Sequence record: MT446415.1 | Length of the DNA stretch: 64,000 bases | Reading direction: 5' to 3' (one strand) | Source: Escherichia virus TH44 | Shown here: positions 9,185 through 57,135 of the stretch, in pieces | Numbering within the stretch: position 1 is the first letter of the stretch | Layout: every line of letters starts with the position of its first letter | Position numbers and translations under genes: made by a program | The notes under the pieces: model-generated | What the model was told of the DNA's origin: nothing | Seen by the model: only the letters and a program-made list of their open reading frames with translations | Database searches by the model: none

Positions 9185-9933
9185 TGAAACCAGAATTTAT
9201 TGACTTTGATGTTGTAAGTATGTATGTTCGCCCAATTAAACCATTAAAACTTGAGAAACAAAATATGACTATTGAAATTAACAAAACTTATCAACTGATT
9301 GAACCTATTATTCAAAACGCAGCTATGGTTTCTGGATATAATATTCTGACTGATGTTTTAGGTGAAGGTGAATTTATTGTTGAAACTTTTGTAAAAAGTA
9401 ACTGGTTTGATAAAGCATATATTTTGCGTGCACGTCGCCTTGATACAAATGAAGTAGAAAAAATTATGGTTTATGAAGCTGAGATTGAACTCTTCAAAGA
9501 AGTTGAAGAAACTCCTATCAAAGTTGACAAAACCTATCAACTTGTTGGATATGGTGATTTTGATAATACTAATGCATTGAATGCTGGTTGGCGTGTACTG
9601 AAAGGTATTTTTGGATTTGCTCCATTTACCGTTAAAACAGTTAAGTACCACAATCACCAAAGCATCTTTGAATTTACTGCAGTCAATGAATCAGGTGACA
9701 ATCTTGAAGCTATCCTTTATCCGCGCGAATCTGTACTGCTGGAAGAAGTTAGCGTACTGGGCGACCCTATTGACTTGCTATGTAAACCAGTTCAAATCAA
9801 ACGCCCGTTTAATAGTTCCATTTGTGGTTGGGTAACAGACCAGTGGATTGAAGATGGTGTTGAACTCCTGAACGTTGTCCATGCTGGTGAATTTACTGTT
9901 GTACCACGTTCCATGGCTGTTGAAATTTTTTAA
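9184..9933 (+). CDS. hypothetical protein, paralogue family with 10014-10568
   Basis: 249 aa; internal repeat (KTYQL twice); C-terminal module GWVTDQWIEDGVELLNVVHAGEFTVVP shared with the next gene. Confidence 0.5.
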   Translation: MKPEFIDFDVVSMYVRPIKPLKLEKQNMTIEINKTYQLIEPIIQNAAMVSGYNILTDVLGEGEFIVETFVKSNWFDKAYILRARRLDTNEVEKIMVYEAEIELFKEVEETPIKVDKTYQLVGYGDFDNTNALNAGWRVLKGIFGFAPFTVKTVKYHNHQSIFEFTAVNESGDNLEAILYPRESVLLEEVSVLGDPIDLLCKPVQIKRPFNSSICGWVTDQWIEDGVELLNVVHAGEFTVVPRSMAVEIF

Positions 9934-9935
9934 TT

Positions 9936-9995
9936 AAATTTGTGTGCAAACTCTTGGGTCCAGAGTATAATGGTCCCGCTGGAGAATAAACTTAT
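9936..9995 (+). promoter_or_regulatory. T4-type early promoter cassette
   Basis: GTGTGCAAACTCTTGGGTCCAGAGTATAATGGTCCC; -35-like, 18 bp, TATAAT. Confidence 0.6.
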
Positions 9996-10013
9996 TAATC
10001 AAGAGAGAAAATT

Positions 10014-10568
10014 ATGAAAGTTGAAGAAGGTGATATTGTACGTGTTTCTAAAGAATCTCGTTCTAAAGCTGCTGGTCGTTTTGTTGAGGTTGTGAGTCTT
10101 CGCACTAATTTAGTAGGCGGAATTAAAGAAGTTAAAGTGCGTATTATTCCTAAACATGGTCAGGCTGAAACTCAATTGGCTTATGTACATCCTAAATTCC
10201 TGGAATCAACTGAATTTACTGGATATATCGCTCCAGTAGTTGAAGAAGTTGAATCCCATGATGGGTATGTGTGCGAAAGCAATGATATTCGTGGTGTAAT
10301 TGCTCAAGACGTTGAAACCATTGACCAGTCTCATGTTGGGGTTGATTTTAAATGGAAATTGGGTAAAGGTGTCTTTTTCGTTTCACCTAAACCGTTTGAA
10401 TACAATTGCAAGTATGGTCCGACTTATGAAACCACTAGTATGTCCGGTTACATCACCGACCAGTGGGTTGAAGAAGGCGTCAAACTGTATAATATCGTAT
10501 TCCTTGGAACCTTTAAGGTTGTTCCTGAGAGCTTTATCGTTGAGTATGCTGATATTCATTTTGCCTAA
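10014..10568 (+). CDS. hypothetical protein, paralogue family with 9184-9933
   Basis: 184 aa; C-terminal SGYITDQWVEEGVKLYNIVFLGTFKVVP. Confidence 0.5.
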   Translation: MKVEEGDIVRVSKESRSKAAGRFVEVVSLRTNLVGGIKEVKVRIIPKHGQAETQLAYVHPKFLESTEFTGYIAPVVEEVESHDGYVCESNDIRGVIAQDVETIDQSHVGVDFKWKLGKGVFFVSPKPFEYNCKYGPTYETTSMSGYITDQWVEEGVKLYNIVFLGTFKVVPESFIVEYADIHFA

Positions 10569-11717: not shown

Positions 11718-13550
11718 ATGATGATTAATAATGAAATTAAAGTACTCTCGGACGTCGAGCATATCAAAAAACGCTCCGGGATGTATATTGGTTCCAGTTC
11801 AAATGAAGCGCATGAGCGATTCTTGTTTGGTGAATATAAGTCCGTAAGCTATGTTCCTGGTATTGTAAAACTGATTGATGAAATTATCGATAACTCTGTT
11901 GATGAAGCAATTCGCACCAGTTTTAAATTTGCCAATAAAATTGATGTTCAAATTAAAGATAATCAGATTTCGGTTTCTGATAATGGCCGTGGTATTCCAC
12001 AGGCAATGGTTACAGACCAAAACGGTGAACAAATCCCCGGCCCTGTTGCAGCATGGACTATTCCAAAAGCTGGTGGCAACTTCGGCGATGATGCTGAACG
12101 TAAAACTGGCGGGATGAATGGTGTCGGGTCTTCTCTGACCAATATTTTCTCTGTATTGTTCACCGGGATTACCGCTGATGGTGCAAATGAAATCACCGTT
12201 AACTGCTCCAACGGTATGGAAAACAAAGGTTGGTCGACCAAGAAATCTAAGGGCAAAGGTACAACTGTTATATTTGTTCCAGATTTTAGTCACTTTGAAG
12301 AAAATAGTCTGTCCCAGATTTATCTGGATATTACATTGGACCGTCTGCAAACTCTTGCGGTTGTTTATCCGGATATTCAGTTCACCTTTAATGGTAAAAA
12401 GGTTGATGGTAATTTCAAAAAGTTTGCCAAGCAATTCGGAACCGAAGTTGTTATCCAGGAAACTGATACAGTATCGATGGCCTTTACGACTAGTCCGGAT
12501 GGTTTCCGTCAGCTGACTTATGTCAACAACATTCACACAAAGAATGGCGGACACCACGTTGAATGTGTTATGGATGATATCTGTGAACACCTTCAGCCGG
12601 CGATTAAGCGCAAATATAAAGGCATCGAGGTGACCAAGGCACGAGTTAAAGAATGCCTCACCATGCTTATGTTCATCCGCGATATGAGCAACATGCGATT
12701 TGATTCCCAGACCAAGGAGCGATTGACTTCTCCGGCCGGTGAAATCCGAAATCACATTAAGATTGATGCTAAGAAAATCGCGCAAGCTATTCTGAAAAAT
12801 GAACCGCTGATTATGCCGATTGTTGAAGCTGCATTAGCCCGTAAATTGGCTGCAGAGAAAGCAGCAGAGACTAAGGCAAATAAGAAAGCTTCGAAGGCCA
12901 AGGTACAAAAGCATATCAAGGCCAACGAATGGGGTAATGATAAGCTGGAAACGACTCTGTTCCTGACCGAAGGGGATTCTGCAACTGGTCCATTTATCAA
13001 GGTTCGTGACCGTGAATTGCAAGGTGCTTATCCGTTACGTGGTAAGTTTAAAAACACATGGGGTCTGAAAGCTGTCGAAGTTATGAAGAACGCTGAAGCC
13101 TTTGATGTGTGTGCGATTACTGGTTTAACGATTGGACAACCGGCCGAGAATATGAATTACCGAAACATTGCTATCATGACAGATGCGGATGTGGATGGTG
13201 TCGGTAGTATCTATCCATCATTATTGGCGTTTTTCAGTAACTGGCCAGAGCTATTCCATGAAGGACGAATTCGCTTTGTGAAAACTCCTGTTATTATTGC
13301 GCAGCTCAAAGATAAACAAGAATGGTTCTATTCTCTTCCTGACTATGAAGAAGCTAAGGATAAACTTCCGAAGCACACCATCCGATATATTAAGGGACTT
13401 GGTTCTCTGGAAGATGCCGAGTACAAACGCGTATTGCTCGAACCAGTATTCGAAGTTGTTCAATTGCCCGACAACTGGAAAGAACTGTTCGAAATGCTAT
13501 TCGGTAAAGATTCCCAGCAGCGTAAAGACTGGATGAATGCGACGCTATAA
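11718..13550 (+). CDS. 39: DNA topoisomerase II large subunit (GyrB-like), fused gp39+gp60 form
   Basis: 610 aa; ATPase motifs SDNGRGIP, GMNGVGSS; TOPRIM LTEGDSA and DADVDG; single uninterrupted ORF. Confidence 0.9.
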   Translation: MMINNEIKVLSDVEHIKKRSGMYIGSSSNEAHERFLFGEYKSVSYVPGIVKLIDEIIDNSVDEAIRTSFKFANKIDVQIKDNQISVSDNGRGIPQAMVTDQNGEQIPGPVAAWTIPKAGGNFGDDAERKTGGMNGVGSSLTNIFSVLFTGITADGANEITVNCSNGMENKGWSTKKSKGKGTTVIFVPDFSHFEENSLSQIYLDITLDRLQTLAVVYPDIQFTFNGKKVDGNFKKFAKQFGTEVVIQETDTVSMAFTTSPDGFRQLTYVNNIHTKNGGHHVECVMDDICEHLQPAIKRKYKGIEVTKARVKECLTMLMFIRDMSNMRFDSQTKERLTSPAGEIRNHIKIDAKKIAQAILKNEPLIMPIVEAALARKLAAEKAAETKANKKASKAKVQKHIKANEWGNDKLETTLFLTEGDSATGPFIKVRDRELQGAYPLRGKFKNTWGLKAVEVMKNAEAFDVCAITGLTIGQPAENMNYRNIAIMTDADVDGVGSIYPSLLAFFSNWPELFHEGRIRFVKTPVIIAQLKDKQEWFYSLPDYEEAKDKLPKHTIRYIKGLGSLEDAEYKRVLLEPVFEVVQLPDNWKELFEMLFGKDSQQRKDWMNATL

Positions 13551-13556
13551 ATAGAT

Positions 13557-13580
13557 ACGGGAGAATATTCTCCCGTCTTA
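13557..13580 (+). terminator. stem-loop after gene 39 (weak terminator)
   Basis: ACGGGAGA-ATAT-TCTCCCGT 8 bp stem, poor U-tract. Confidence 0.35.
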
Positions 13581-18985: not shown

Positions 18986-19050
18986 TAAAAAGTAGTGTAC
19001 ATCAGTATGGAGTCTATGTATAATGATTCCATACTGAGTTACCAAACAGA
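18986..19050 (+). promoter_or_regulatory. T4-type early promoter cassette
   Basis: AAAAAGTAGTGTACA, 18 bp, TATAAT, then TTCCATACTGAGTTACC; ATGGA/TCCAT inverted repeat around -10. Confidence 0.6.
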
Positions 19051-19062
19051 CTGGAGAATAAA

Positions 19063-19218
19063 ATGAAACCTGCTCAATATGCAATGACTTTATACCTTGA
19101 AGTTAATGGCGATATTACTGAATTTTTTAAATTAATGCAACAGCGCGGAAAAAGTTTTGCAGTTACTGAGCGTCAATTTTACGCTTGCCGTAAAAATACA
19201 TACAATCGTTATGCGTGA
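19063..19218 (+). CDS. hypothetical small protein
   Basis: 51 aa, not in track; SD GGAG after cassette. Confidence 0.35.
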   Translation: MKPAQYAMTLYLEVNGDITEFFKLMQQRGKSFAVTERQFYACRKNTYNRYA

Positions 19219-19228
19219 GGAAAACAAA

Positions 19229-19968: not shown

Positions 19969-20210
19969 AACTTTTTAAAGACATTGCAGTTGGTGAAAAA
20001 TTTGTCCTGGGTAATGGTCAACAACTGATTCGCATTTCGCCTTTAATGGATAACAGTGAACGCCCTGTGCGCACTGAAAACTGTTTGGATTATCCTTTTT
20101 ATCAGAAGCGTTTTGCAATTGAAAATAATACTGAGTGTTTCACAGTTGATGAACTGATGGAATCATCAGAAGAAGTTGACTTGTGGGATGGCGCAGTTGA
20201 TGTAGAATAG
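19965..20210 (+). CDS. hypothetical protein
   Basis: 81 aa; TAG stop is part of the next cassette. Confidence 0.4.
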   Translation: MKLFKDIAVGEKFVLGNGQQLIRISPLMDNSERPVRTENCLDYPFYQKRFAIENNTECFTVDELMESSEEVDLWDGAVDVE

Positions 20211-20270
20211 TGTACAAACTCTTGGGAGCAGAGTATAATGCTCCCAGTGGATAATAAAATTTAACTGAGG
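20208..20270 (+). promoter_or_regulatory. T4-type early promoter cassette with hairpin around -10
   Basis: TAGTGTACAAACTCTT-GGGAGCA-gagTATAAT-GCTCCC; perfect 7 bp inverted repeat. Confidence 0.65.
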
Positions 20271-20278
20271 AAATCATT

Positions 20279-20623
20279 ATGTCTAAAGTATTTTTTGGTA
20301 ATCGCAACATTATGTTCTTTAAACAGATTAGCGTATCAGAAGCATTTGATTTAAGTTATTCGGGCGGCACAAAAGCTGTTAACCTTAAAAATTTGATGTC
20401 TGCAGAATTTGCATTCTATCAGGACCCTGAAACTGGTTTCTACAAATTTATTAAGTTCCGCATGACTATGGACCGCGATTATCGTGATGTTTATTATACA
20501 AGTTATGAAAGTGTTGTGAATGCAATTCGTGAAGCTTATGGATTGGATTCGTTATCTCTTGACCGCCTGTATAATGCAAGCCTTTACACCAGCGGATTTA
20601 TTTTAGAACAGCTTCAAAAATAG
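20279..20623 (+). CDS. hypothetical protein
   Basis: 114 aa; TAG stop embedded in next cassette. Confidence 0.45.
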   Translation: MSKVFFGNRNIMFFKQISVSEAFDLSYSGGTKAVNLKNLMSAEFAFYQDPETGFYKFIKFRMTMDRDYRDVYYTSYESVVNAIREAYGLDSLSLDRLYNASLYTSGFILEQLQK

Positions 20624-20690
20624 TGTACAAACTCTTGGGGTCAGAGTATAATGACCCCACTGGAGCACAAAACTTTAACTTACTGAGGAA
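20621..20690 (+). promoter_or_regulatory. T4-type early promoter cassette with hairpin around -10
   Basis: TAGTGTACAAACTCTT-GGGGTCA-gagTATAAT-GACCCC; arms differ from the 20208 copy by two compensatory pairs. Confidence 0.65.
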
Positions 20691-20696
20691 ATTAAT

Positions 20697-21146
20697 ATGA
20701 ATACTTACATGACCCGTCGTGACGTACTGAATGCTGGCGCTACCACTGTTGCTTACATCCATAATGGTAATTATGTCGCCGGTCGCCCAACTAAAGAAGC
20801 TATCACCCAACCGGGTTTTTATTTTGTAGTTAAGGGTGAAGGTGAATCGCGTATTGTTGCGGCACGTTTTTACGTTGGTAACCAACGTTCACAACAAGGG
20901 TTTGACACTGTATTAAGTCACATCCGCAAACAGCGTTCACAACTGTCGCGCACAATGGCGAACAATGGTGTTATCTATGAAGTTCTGTTTGTTCCGGTTT
21001 CTAAAATGAAGCCTCTGACAACTGGTTATGGTAAAGGTCAAATTGCAATGGCGTTCACTCGCTCACATAGTTCTGATTGCCAGACCCTTTCAGAAATGAA
21101 TCGCATGCTTGCTGATAACTTTAAATTCATTCTGCAGAGCTATTAA
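20697..21146 (+). CDS. ndd: nucleoid disruption protein Ndd-like
   Basis: 149 aa (T4 Ndd 151); position between rIIB and stp/52; sequence resemblance from recall only. Confidence 0.45.
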
Positions 21147-21147
21147 T

Positions 21148-21321
21148 ATGAGACATTTCTTTACAATGGGTTACTTATTTGTTTTAGCACTATTTGTTAT
21201 TACAGGAGCCTTTATAGCCTTTGGCGCTCCATTTAATGATAAAGTTGCTGTTACTATGTGCTTTAGTGGCGGATTTATCTGTTTTGAACGTTTATGTAAA
21301 ATGTGTGGTATATATGAGTAA
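21148..21321 (+). CDS. small membrane protein (T4 ac position)
   Basis: 57 aa from internal ATG; hydrophobic [18 protein letters not shown]. Confidence 0.35.
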
Positions 21322-23176: not shown

Positions 23177-23204
23177 AGGACCCTTCAGGGTCCTTTTTTA
23201 TTTT
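23177..23204 (+). terminator. rho-independent terminator
   Basis: GGACCC-TTCA-GGGTCC plus TTTTTTATTTT. Confidence 0.7.
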
Positions 23205-39662: not shown

Positions 39663-39667
39663 TATAA

Positions 39668-39695
39668 GGGGACCTTCGGGTCCCTTTTTTATTTT
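39668..39695 (+). terminator. rho-independent terminator
   Basis: GGGACC-TTCG-GGTCCC plus TTTTTTATTTT. Confidence 0.7.
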
Positions 39696-40197: not shown

Positions 40198-40425
40198 ATG
40201 GCTAAGGTTAATATTGATATCGTTGATTTTGAATACACTTACGAAGTTATTCGTAATCGGTATCCTTCTTTGTGTATGACTTACATTAAAGATACCCAAT
40301 TCTTTAGTATTCAAATTGAAGTTCAAGGTCCTCTTGAAGACCTTACCCGCTTTATGCAAAATGAATATTGCGAAGGGATGCACCCGGAAGACGCTAAATT
40401 TTATATGAATTTGATTGAAGCTTAA
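40198..40425 (+). CDS. hypothetical protein
   Basis: 75 aa, SD GAGGAAAA. Confidence 0.45.
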
Positions 40426-40484
40426 TATACAAACCAACGGGAACATGATAATATGTTCCCTCAATTGAATATGAGGAAATTAAA

Positions 40485-40859
40485 ATGATGGAAACTGGTA
40501 AATTTTACGTATTAGACCCTGCTGCTAAAAAACAATTCATCGCTGGTAGCCCTGATGATAATTATAATTCATGCATGGTCAAGTTGATGGAACAGCATGG
40601 CAGTTCCTTCAAAGTCCTGGATATGAGTTATATTGAAGGTGATTATTTTGTTGAAAAAGTTGAAATGAAAGATGGCACTATCCTGAATAGTATGGGTGGA
40701 CCTGATGAGTACTTTGAACTCGCTGAATGGGAATTCTGTCACTTCCTGGAAGTTGATGGCGATGCTCCTGATGTTGATACCCAAACCATTCATGTGCAAG
40801 TCAATCACAAAAATGCCGCAGAAGTCATTGCACTGATTAAAGCAACTTTTGGGGTCTAA
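40485..40859 (+). CDS. hypothetical protein, three-member paralogue family
   Basis: 124 aa; paralogue of 39773-40135; preceded by GGGAACAT/ATGTTCCC hairpin and SD. Confidence 0.5.
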   Translation: MMETGKFYVLDPAAKKQFIAGSPDDNYNSCMVKLMEQHGSSFKVLDMSYIEGDYFVEKVEMKDGTILNSMGGPDEYFELAEWEFCHFLEVDGDAPDVDTQTIHVQVNHKNAAEVIALIKATFGV

Positions 40860-49389: not shown

Positions 49390-49455
49390 AAAGGGGTGTA
49401 CAAGCCCCTTCTTTCTATACATAATGGTTCCATCAACTACTGATGAGGACCAAAA
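49390..49455 (+). promoter_or_regulatory. T4-type early promoter cassette
   Basis: AAGGGGTGTACAAGCCCCTT (the -35 sits in a hairpin loop), CATAAT, GGTTCCATCAACTACTGATGAGGA. Confidence 0.6.
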
Positions 49456-50838: not shown

Positions 50839-50942
50839 TAGAGACCTGTAGCCTTGGTTGGGATATTGTTAGATTTGGTGCATTCTGTTTTTGTTTTGGA
50901 ATTACGGCCACTTTATGTGTTCAAGGTCTTTTTGGAAAGTAG
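50835..50942 (+). CDS. small hydrophobic peptide
   Basis: 35 aa, not in track; TAG stop embedded in the next promoter cassette. Confidence 0.25.
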   Translation: MIETCSLGWDIVRFGAFCFCFGITATLCVQGLFGK

Positions 50943-51000
50943 TGTACAAACTTATGGGAGCAGAGTATAATGCTCCACGGATTATAAAATTTGAGGAATT
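50940..51000 (+). promoter_or_regulatory. T4-type early promoter cassette
   Basis: TAGTGTACAAACTTATGGGAGCAGAGTATAATGCTCCA. Confidence 0.6.
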
Positions 51001-51004
51001 GAAT

Positions 51005-51462
51005 ATGAAAATATTATGGTATGTTGAGAACGCTAATAATATCATGAAGTGTAAAGACGAATTCTTCCAAAAGCTGGCCCGAATTGGCTCTTGCCGCAAA
51101 ACACCTTTGGAAGGTAAAGCTCGATTCTTTATTAAAGAATGTAAAGGTGGAGCTATTACAGAAGTCGAATATTATGCTCCATGGAATGATTTCCCAAGCC
51201 GAGTGTTAGAATTATCCGAGCCTATTCCTTCTGATGTATGGAATTCAATCTTAGATGTTACGGCGTGCTATGAAGAAAACCAATCACTTCATGAAGAAAA
51301 AGAACGTATTCGTGAGCTAGTAAAAAGTTTTGAATACGCGGCTAAACGCCATGGTCAAATGCAATCTGCCGCTGCACTTGGTGATGTTTCTGAAAGTGCA
51401 GCTTATGAAACTGGTAAAATCCTTAAAACCTGTCGCGAAGAACTTTATAAGGAGCTTGGTGT

Positions 51463-57103: not shown

Positions 57104-57108
57104 GTTCA

Positions 57109-57135
57109 GGGACTCTTCGGAGTCCCTTTTTATTT
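57109..57135 (+). terminator. rho-independent terminator
   Basis: GGGACTC-TTCG-GAGTCCC plus TTTTTATTTT. Confidence 0.7.

Follow-up and report, generated by a model that had tools for sequence, protein, structure and literature searches.

The stretch of 64,000 nucleotides (nt) of Escherichia virus TH44 analyzed here (MT446415.1; referred to as the window) belongs to a T4-like coliphage and contains a family of repeated intergenic cassettes, in which an inverted repeat encloses the -10 element of a predicted early promoter. It falls into the VR7/SP18 group; its closest relatives are phages of the genus Gaprivervirus, in which SP18 and VR7 are classified. Sequence identity around the cassettes is about 96% to ECML-359, TH41, and UPEC01, and 94-96% to SP18 and VR7. 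According to the annotation of SP18 and VR7, the local gene order is denB, two open reading frames (ORFs), ndd.4, ndd.3, ndd.1, an ORFan of 114 amino acids (aa), ndd, small ORFs, and gp52. Two of the hairpins are located in consecutive intergenic gaps, one between ndd.1 and the ORFan (20208-20281) and one between the ORFan and ndd (20621-20699). The ORFs neighboring the family copies encode 81-184 aa and are those of the denB-ndd-gp52 region. Each cassette is a compact module of about 70-85 nt, which leads from a stop codon over the early promoter to the Shine-Dalgarno (SD) sequence and the ATG of the next small gene.

All parts of the cassettes are on the plus strand. Copy B extends from the TAG stop codon of ndd.1 (20208-20210) to the ATG of the 114-aa ORF (20279). 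Its -35 element is TGTACA (20211-20216), with TTTACA instead in many relatives, and a spacer of 17 bp separates it from the -10 element TATAAT (20234-20239). The 5' arm of the inverted repeat, GGGAGCA (20224-20230), is located in the promoter spacer at about -22 to -16, and the 3' arm, TGCTCCC (20239-20245), in the discriminator region, with the predicted +1 at position 20246 as given by the usual 7-nt spacing after the -10. Five bases of the -10 element are in the 8-nt loop GAGTATAA, whereas its last T already opens the 3' arm. Three nt past the stem follows a stretch, GGATAATAAAA (20249-20259), that resembles the RegB/S1 sites of T4 as a match in sequence only. Copy C extends from the TAG stop codon of the 114-aa ORF (20621-20623) to the ATG of ndd (20697). 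It is composed of a -35 element (20624-20629), the 5' arm GGGGTCA (20637-20643), the -10 element TATAAT (20647-20652) with the same loop and the same shared last T as in copy B, the 3' arm TGACCCC (20652-20658), and the RegB-like stretch GGAGCACAAAA (20662-20672). The two copies form a direct repeat with 84% identity over 57 nt at a spacing of 413 nt, and their promoter TGTACA-17-TATAAT agrees with the sigma70 consensus at 10 of 12 positions. Both hairpins, GGGAGCA-GAGTATAA-TGCTCCC at 20224-20245 and GGGGTCA-GAGTATAA-TGACCCC at 20637-20658, have 7 of 7 Watson-Crick pairs, exactly as described in a previous sequence-only reading of this stretch, and the two paired differences from which that reading started, A-T to G-C at pair 4 and G-C to T-A at pair 5, are indeed present. 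An eighth pair, T-A, borders the stems of both copies.

Altogether the window contains five copies of the family, of which the sequence-only reading had listed four; the additional one is at 40439-40460. The copies that it had placed at 9948 and 50947 both exist and are each one pair short, whereas the coordinates of their arms were off by about 8 nt. Copy A (9931-10016) starts with the stop codon at 9931-9933 and leads to the ATG of a 184-aa ORF at 10014. Its promoter is TGTGCA-N17-TATAAT with the -35 at 9943-9948, and its arms GGGTCCA/TGGTCCC (9956-9962/9971-9977) have a T:T mismatch at pair 4; the RegB-like stretch GGAGAATAAAC is at 9981-9991. Copy E (50940-51007), with the stop codon at 50940-50942, precedes a 153-aa ORF (ATG at 51005). 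It has a TGTACA-N17-TATAAT promoter (-35 at 50943-50948), the arms GGGAGCA/TGCTCCA (50956-50962/50971-50977), which form 6 bp and have lost the outer pair by a 1-nt deletion compared to the relatives, and GGATTATAAAA at 50979-50989. The fifth copy, D (40423-40487), was found in a register-fixed scan and is diverged: in front of a 124-aa ORF (ATG at 40485), it combines TATACA (40426-40431) with N17 and TAATAT (40449-40454), and its arms GGGAACA/TGTTCCC (40439-40445/40454-40460) with the loop TGATAATA are paired at 7 of 7 positions. The stop codon directly adjoins the -35 element in copies B, C, and E, and the distance from the stem to the SD and ATG is 33-36 nt, or 26 nt in copy D. The core RNA hairpins have predicted folding energies of -13.9, -13.9, -9.8, -11.9, and -10.4 kcal/mol (z-scores -3.1 to -5.4), and copies B and C reach the same value of -13.9 kcal/mol despite their different stem sequences.

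Base pairing in the stem

The stem is kept by selection for base pairing on the sense strand, which is evident from the covariation of its arms and from a bias toward G.U pairs. Copies were collected with search patterns in which the arms were left as N, namely with ACAAACTNNTNNNNNNNGAGTATAAT in viral contigs and metagenomes and with one looser viral pattern, and the hits were sorted by flank features only. The resulting alignment comprises 31 distinct copies, 27 from the viral and metagenome scans and four from the window. Copies A and D, which the scan pattern does not match, were put in by hand. In this alignment 98.6% of the stem cells are paired compared to 85.4% in shuffles, a value that none of 500 shuffles reached, and pairing drops to 41-51% when the 3' partner is slid by one to three columns. 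Four of the seven pairs (positions 2, 4, 5, and 6) have changed on both sides, all six pair types (GC, CG, AU, UA, UG, GU) occur at the single pair formed by columns 27 and 40, and at least seven fully paired stems of different sequence are found (GGGAGCA, GGGGTCA, GGGACCA, GAGAGCA, GAGGACA, GGGAACA, and GGGAGTA). Among 58 T4-like copies, 56 have 6-7 Watson-Crick or G.U pairs; the two exceptions are an out-of-register copy and a false positive. Thus, the selection on pairing that had been proposed holds in a much larger sample with unconstrained arms, and the correlation of the arm changes, which that proposal made its test, is borne out.

Chance is ruled out as an explanation, since the 36-nt motif occurs four times on the plus strand with 0 expected in shuffles and since pairing is far above that of shuffles and slid registers. 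The same is true for the idea that the stem is a by-product of the promoter consensus. Promoters of unrelated phages that match ACAAACT..T and (GA)GTATAAT lack the stem; they have 0-5 Watson-Crick matches, mostly 1-3, and their pair counts center on 2-3. Because the promoter is near-invariant while the stem changes its sequence and keeps its pairing and stability, the stem is itself a selected part of the cassette. The family is therefore an unusually clean natural experiment. As a further candidate, an outer helix of CUCU with GGAG, which some folds predict, remained unsupported, since the spacer variants CTCAT, CTCGT, and CTTAT are not compensated downstream. The eighth pair, T22-A/G45, is plausible, being U-A in 16 copies, U-G in 11, and broken in 4. 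A shared upstream gene in the copies that start with CAAAAATAG was ruled out as well, as BLAST found only the cassette of about 85-90 nt in common, with unrelated flanks. No match to any family of Rfam 15 at the gathering score was found anywhere in the window.

The remaining non-Watson-Crick cells show on which strand the pairing is kept. Within the family, 17 of 20 such cells are G.U when read on the plus (sense) strand and none is A.C. A wider census of 58 T4-like loci, with symmetric treatment of G.T and A.C, yielded 48 distinct -10-enclosing hairpins; their internal mismatches were G.T in 27 cases and A.C in 6, although base composition predicts near-equal numbers. In the predicted folds, the sense RNA exceeds the antisense RNA in stability for all 20 distinct family cores and for 40 of the 48 census hairpins. 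An excess of G.U without A.C is expected for a structure of the sense transcript, while a two-strand cruciform or neutral palindrome-templated mutation predicts no bias; it is therefore the RNA that is indicated as the level of selection. Of the two options that the sequence-only reading had left side by side, the RNA hairpin in read-through transcripts is thus favored and the DNA cruciform disfavored.

Several points have to be set against this conclusion. Many copies share ancestry, so that cell counts overstate the number of independent events, and the census mismatches correspond, by estimate, to roughly 17 G.T versus 5 A.C independent events. Moreover, the constraint is not absolute, as the imperfect copies A and E in the window demonstrate, and a single-stranded DNA hairpin of the same strand would account for the G.U bias as well. 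Nevertheless, at least six independent compensated stem types are estimated, and the distinct compensated stems are too many for chance, even when kinship is allowed for.

Promoter-early stem-loops and turnover of the cassettes

Cassettes of this kind have been described before. Arbiol et al. (2010; PMC2839356) report "promoter-early stem-loops" (PeSLs) as repeated intergenic motifs of the phages RB49 and phi1. Five subclasses are distinguished there by the position of the stem, which is most commonly between -35 and -10 or overlapping the -10, and G-T pairs are marked in the stems. Promoter activity was demonstrated, and for one stem-loop a drop in read-through similar to that of rrnB T1. Furthermore, PeSLs were linked to gain and loss of ORFans and to mini-circles, and PeSL-like sequences were remarked in JS98. 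In a later study, PeSLs were extended to PST/T4 and nt-1/KVP40 with the consensus TTTACW-N17-TAYWAT, and the ndd region, with ndd.4/.5 in T4 versus PST, serves to illustrate how PeSLs mediate exchange (Comeau et al., 2014; PMC4122927). The shuffling of genes in the plastic parts of T4-like genomes is attributed to PeSL cassettes as a presumed driving force, whereas the action of the stem-loop itself has been assayed in one example of RB49 only.

By their sequence-level features, the cassettes of TH44 belong to this published class, of which they are new members in a further clade. [quoted passage not shown] They are repeated beside small ORFs or ORFs of unknown function, with five family copies plus cassettes of other subclasses in 64 kb, and indels or replacements between close relatives occur at copies B and E. 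Only the upstream A-rich stretches (CAAAAATAG, GGAAAGTAG, ATTTTTTAATTAAATTT) are short, because the upstream ORF extends to the -35 element. The order of stop codon, sigma70 -35/-10, stem-loop, SD, and ATG is shared with the PeSLs of RB49/phi1, where an A/T-rich stretch comes after the stop codon, and so are the layout with a stem overlapping the -10, the G-T pairs, the repetition beside small ORFans, and the link to indels and replacements. The two sets differ in the clade (Gaprivervirus-like versus RB49-like), in the -35 element (TGTACA/TTTACA versus TTGACA), and in the stem, which is GGGNNCA/TGNNCCC here and polyG/polyC there. The PST/T4 consensus fits the relatives of this family and the -35 element of copy B, and the ndd region is common to both; however, the stems of PST/T4 are described as lying just upstream of the promoter, whereas those of TH44 bracket the -10. 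Compared to the early promoters of T4 (Hinton, 2010; PMC2988021), the cassettes share the strong sigma70 type, extra conserved positions, and the location ahead of early genes, but they have no TGn extended -10 (CAGAG-TATAAT), and no enclosing inverted repeat is part of that description. A G+C-rich hairpin past the stop codon is common to Rho-independent terminators and 3' stabilizer hairpins, and self-contained gene units are common to the lambdoid "morons". Unlike these, the cassettes lack a U-tract and carry a hairpin that is part of the next promoter, and what apparently recombines is the conserved cassette as such. Neither covariation statistics nor a strand bias of G.U was found in the parts of the two PeSL papers that were covered. 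A literature search yielded nothing specific on early promoters of VR7 or JS98 beyond the PeSL-like remark on JS98, and no motif was reported there for DksA or discriminator regulation of T4 early promoters.

Owing to its repetition, the cassette also acts as a homology patch at which neighboring ORFs are gained, lost, and swapped, as the comparison with relatives shows. The window shares the cassette of copy B with SP18 and VR26, while it is missing as a unit in VR7, RZ, and pEC-M719, where the SD directly follows the stop codon of ndd.1. Three different states follow copy E among the window and its relatives: a 98%-identical relative turns to unrelated sequence exactly at the SD/ATG (50998), and another one lacks the whole 153-aa ORF. 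At the site of copy A (9956-9977), close relatives have GGGGTCA/TGACCCC, GGGGCCA/TGGTCCC, or GGGGTCG/TGGCCCC (loci L004, L035, and L210), which results in four different arm pairs among phages that are about 95% identical overall. Two of the four are identical to the arms of other family cassettes, one of them in the same genome. Four arm pairs at one orthologous site suggest gene conversion or exchange between cassettes and a fast turnover of the stem compared to its flanks. Other presence/absence differences were observed nearby. The promoter at 18996 is followed by a 51-aa ORF (19066-19225) that VR20 and VR25 lack, several relatives lack about 150 nt past ndd (21160-21311), and in pEC-M719 (L219, 2227-2373) an additional 48-aa ORF with repeated SD-ATG at its bounds separates ndd.1 from the 114-aa ORF.

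Possible roles of the stem-loop

Taken as a whole, the cassettes are probably best explained as PeSL-type units with a pairing-selected stem that has a boundary role at the RNA level, and as patches of homology. The strong sigma70 early promoter (TGTACA/TTTACA, 17 bp, TATAAT) would drive expression of the next small gene. Since the 5' arm is in the spacer and the 3' arm forms the discriminator, the spacing predicts that the promoter's own transcripts start past the stem and do not contain the hairpin, which would therefore be present only in RNA read through from the upstream gene. There, the hairpin most likely marks the boundary between neighboring early transcription units. It could be a stable 3' structure that slows or blocks the polymerase and/or guards the upstream message from 3' exonucleases after a cut in the A-rich RegB/RNase E-like stretch. 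Among the roles of the stem, we consider such an RNA boundary, stabilization, or processing most likely, classic attenuation or termination second, and an action at the DNA level third. It has to be conceded that we infer promoter activity, read-through, and 3' ends in this phage group. In addition, canonical terminators elsewhere in the genome show that the -10-enclosing stems are a different device, of whichever kind, and in the lack of a T-run the termination reported for one RB49 stem-loop is not simply transferable.

The authors of the PeSL studies proposed that the stem-loop is a terminator or attenuator for polymerase arriving from upstream, which shields the promoter from occlusion and limits cumulative over-expression downstream. 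For the family described here this appears rather unlikely. The location directly past the stop codon is right, the stem is stable and G+C-rich (-10 to -14 kcal/mol), and the stem-loop of RB49 PeSL211/210 cut lacZ read-through as much as rrnB T1. However, an intrinsic terminator consists of a G+C-rich hairpin followed by a U-run, and only the hairpin is present: the tail after the stem reads AGTGGATAATAAAA and similar, without a T-run in any copy, and a terminator scan of the window did not report these sites. The missing T-run makes classic intrinsic termination unlikely, and for termination by the hairpin only, a stem of 7-8 bp closing a loop of 8 nt is weak. Textbook terminators are found just upstream of other early promoters of the same genome at 23177-23203, 39667-39695, and 57108-57135, each with a GC stem of 7-9 bp, a loop of the TTCA/TTCG type, and a T-run. 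The termination site that the sequence-only reading had considered is thus a weak option for this family, while its second suggestion, a processing site, gains some support from the RegB/S1-like motif 2-3 nt past the stem.

This putative motif, GGA(G/U)-N-A-Y-A-R-A-A, is present in 20 of 20 distinct downstream variants and is missing only in the diverged copy D. Over the 20 variants, GGA is invariant, positions 6-10 are kept in 85-95%, and 7-10 of 11 positions match. It thereby resembles, also in its early intergenic location, the strong RegB/S1 sites of T4 with the consensus GG*AG/U-R-A-Y-A-R-A-A, given as GG*AGRAYARAA by Uzan and Miller (2010; PMC3014915). In T4 the RegB site is usually the SD itself, whereas the candidate site here is separate, 20-30 nt upstream of a GAGGAAA SD, and U is more common than G at position 4, unlike in the T4 consensus. 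A loose version of the motif occurs 12 times on the plus strand of the window compared to 2.7 expected, and twice on the minus strand; of the 12, four follow family hairpins, and another seven, which read GGAGAATAAAATG or GGATAAYAAAATG, coincide with the SD of other early genes. The regB gene is annotated in the close relative VR7, and the corresponding genome region is outside the window. RegB, RNases, or processing are not mentioned in the RB49/phi1 PeSL paper (Arbiol et al., 2010; PMC2839356), the only paper searched for them, and the RegB-like motif can be regarded as a modest new lead past the published PeSL description. On the other hand, the GGA...AAAA motif might just as well represent the conserved start of the transcribed sequence, a TATAAA box similar to late promoters, or a relic SD, GGAGAATAAAATG being the SD of five other genes. 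The stretch after the stem often reads TATAAAA or TATAAAT (20249-20262, 50979-50992, and loci L031 and L139), one or two bases off the T4 late box TATAAATA, and some of these cassettes could also fire late.

Combining these elements, we tentatively propose a three-part module for RNA processing in place of a promoter plus terminator, although the chances that it exists in this form are low. It would consist of the hairpin that occurs only in read-through RNA, a RegB/S1 (or RNase E) site 2-3 nt past it, and a transcription start that leaves the same site unpaired at about +3 to +15. A cut would then leave the upstream message with a stabilizing 3' hairpin, and the downstream message would receive a 5'-OH end and be degraded with the help of a polynucleotide kinase of the T4 type and of RNase G/E, so that every small early gene would have a life-time that does not depend on its neighbors. 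In one predicted fold of the read-through RNA, the GGAG may pair with the upstream CUCU, which would tie cleavage to the promoter that made the RNA. The absent U-run and the adjoining RegB-like site suggest that at least this subclass acts via RNA processing or stability rather than classic termination. If this is true, the usual designation "promoter-terminator" would need refining. The practical value is modest: for therapeutic coliphages of the T4-like type, mosaic junctions and early transcription units could be annotated better.

It is improbable that the inverted repeat acts as DNA, that is, by modulating the promoter in the form of a cruciform or of a hairpin in a single strand, or as a hot spot of recombination or nicking, with the paired changes arising from template switching within the quasi-palindrome instead of selection. 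Mutation templated by quasi-palindromes is classically documented in T4, the cassettes are located at mosaic junctions, and the predicted DNA hairpins (-7.5 to -7.8 kcal/mol) are more stable than shuffles. But neither a two-strand cruciform nor neutral template switching is expected to produce the strong excess of G.T over A.C, cruciform extrusion is poor with a stem of 7 bp and a loop of 8 nt, and the junctions are at the 3' end of the cassette (SD/ATG) or around the whole cassette, none of them in the loop. Least credible of all is that a dimeric protein of the phage or the host binds here to switch the early promoter off, for although the dyad symmetry is centered on the -10 and the activity of early promoters is known to cease a few minutes post infection, such a site predicts conserved bases, whereas complementary covariation is seen at positions 2, 4, 5, and 6 with six pair types at one of them, complementarity is kept across unrelated stem sequences, and other early promoters of the window bear entirely different stems at the same place (18996, with 13 bp and -19 kcal/mol, 40139, 41145, and 57592).

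Other promoters and hairpins of the window

Besides the family with the -10-enclosing stem, further arrangements of stems and early promoters are present. The stem AAGGGG/CCCCTT at 49391-49410 brackets the -35 element TGTACA of another early promoter, which corresponds to the subclass "overlapping the -35", and the terminators at 23177-23203, 39667-39695, and 57108-57135 correspond to the PeSL subclass whose stem is located upstream of the -35. Early promoter cassettes of a second family are composed of AAAAAGTAGTGTACA, a variable stem, and (C/T)ATAATGATTCCATACTGAGTTAC. Their SD with spacer, GGAGAATAAAATG, is located at 19053, 23283, 41183, 57208, and 57648, with the promoters about 40-60 nt upstream, and is an exact match in sequence to the strong RegB consensus GGAGRAYARAA. 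Strict matches number five on the plus strand and none on the minus strand, compared to 0.27 expected. Finally, at 13547-13576 a T4-type late box TATAAATA is followed after 4 nt by an 8-bp hairpin (CGGGAGAA TATT CTCCCG; -16 kcal/mol for the region), which lies just ahead of an SD and ATG and might thus be a structured part of the 5' leader in a late transcript.

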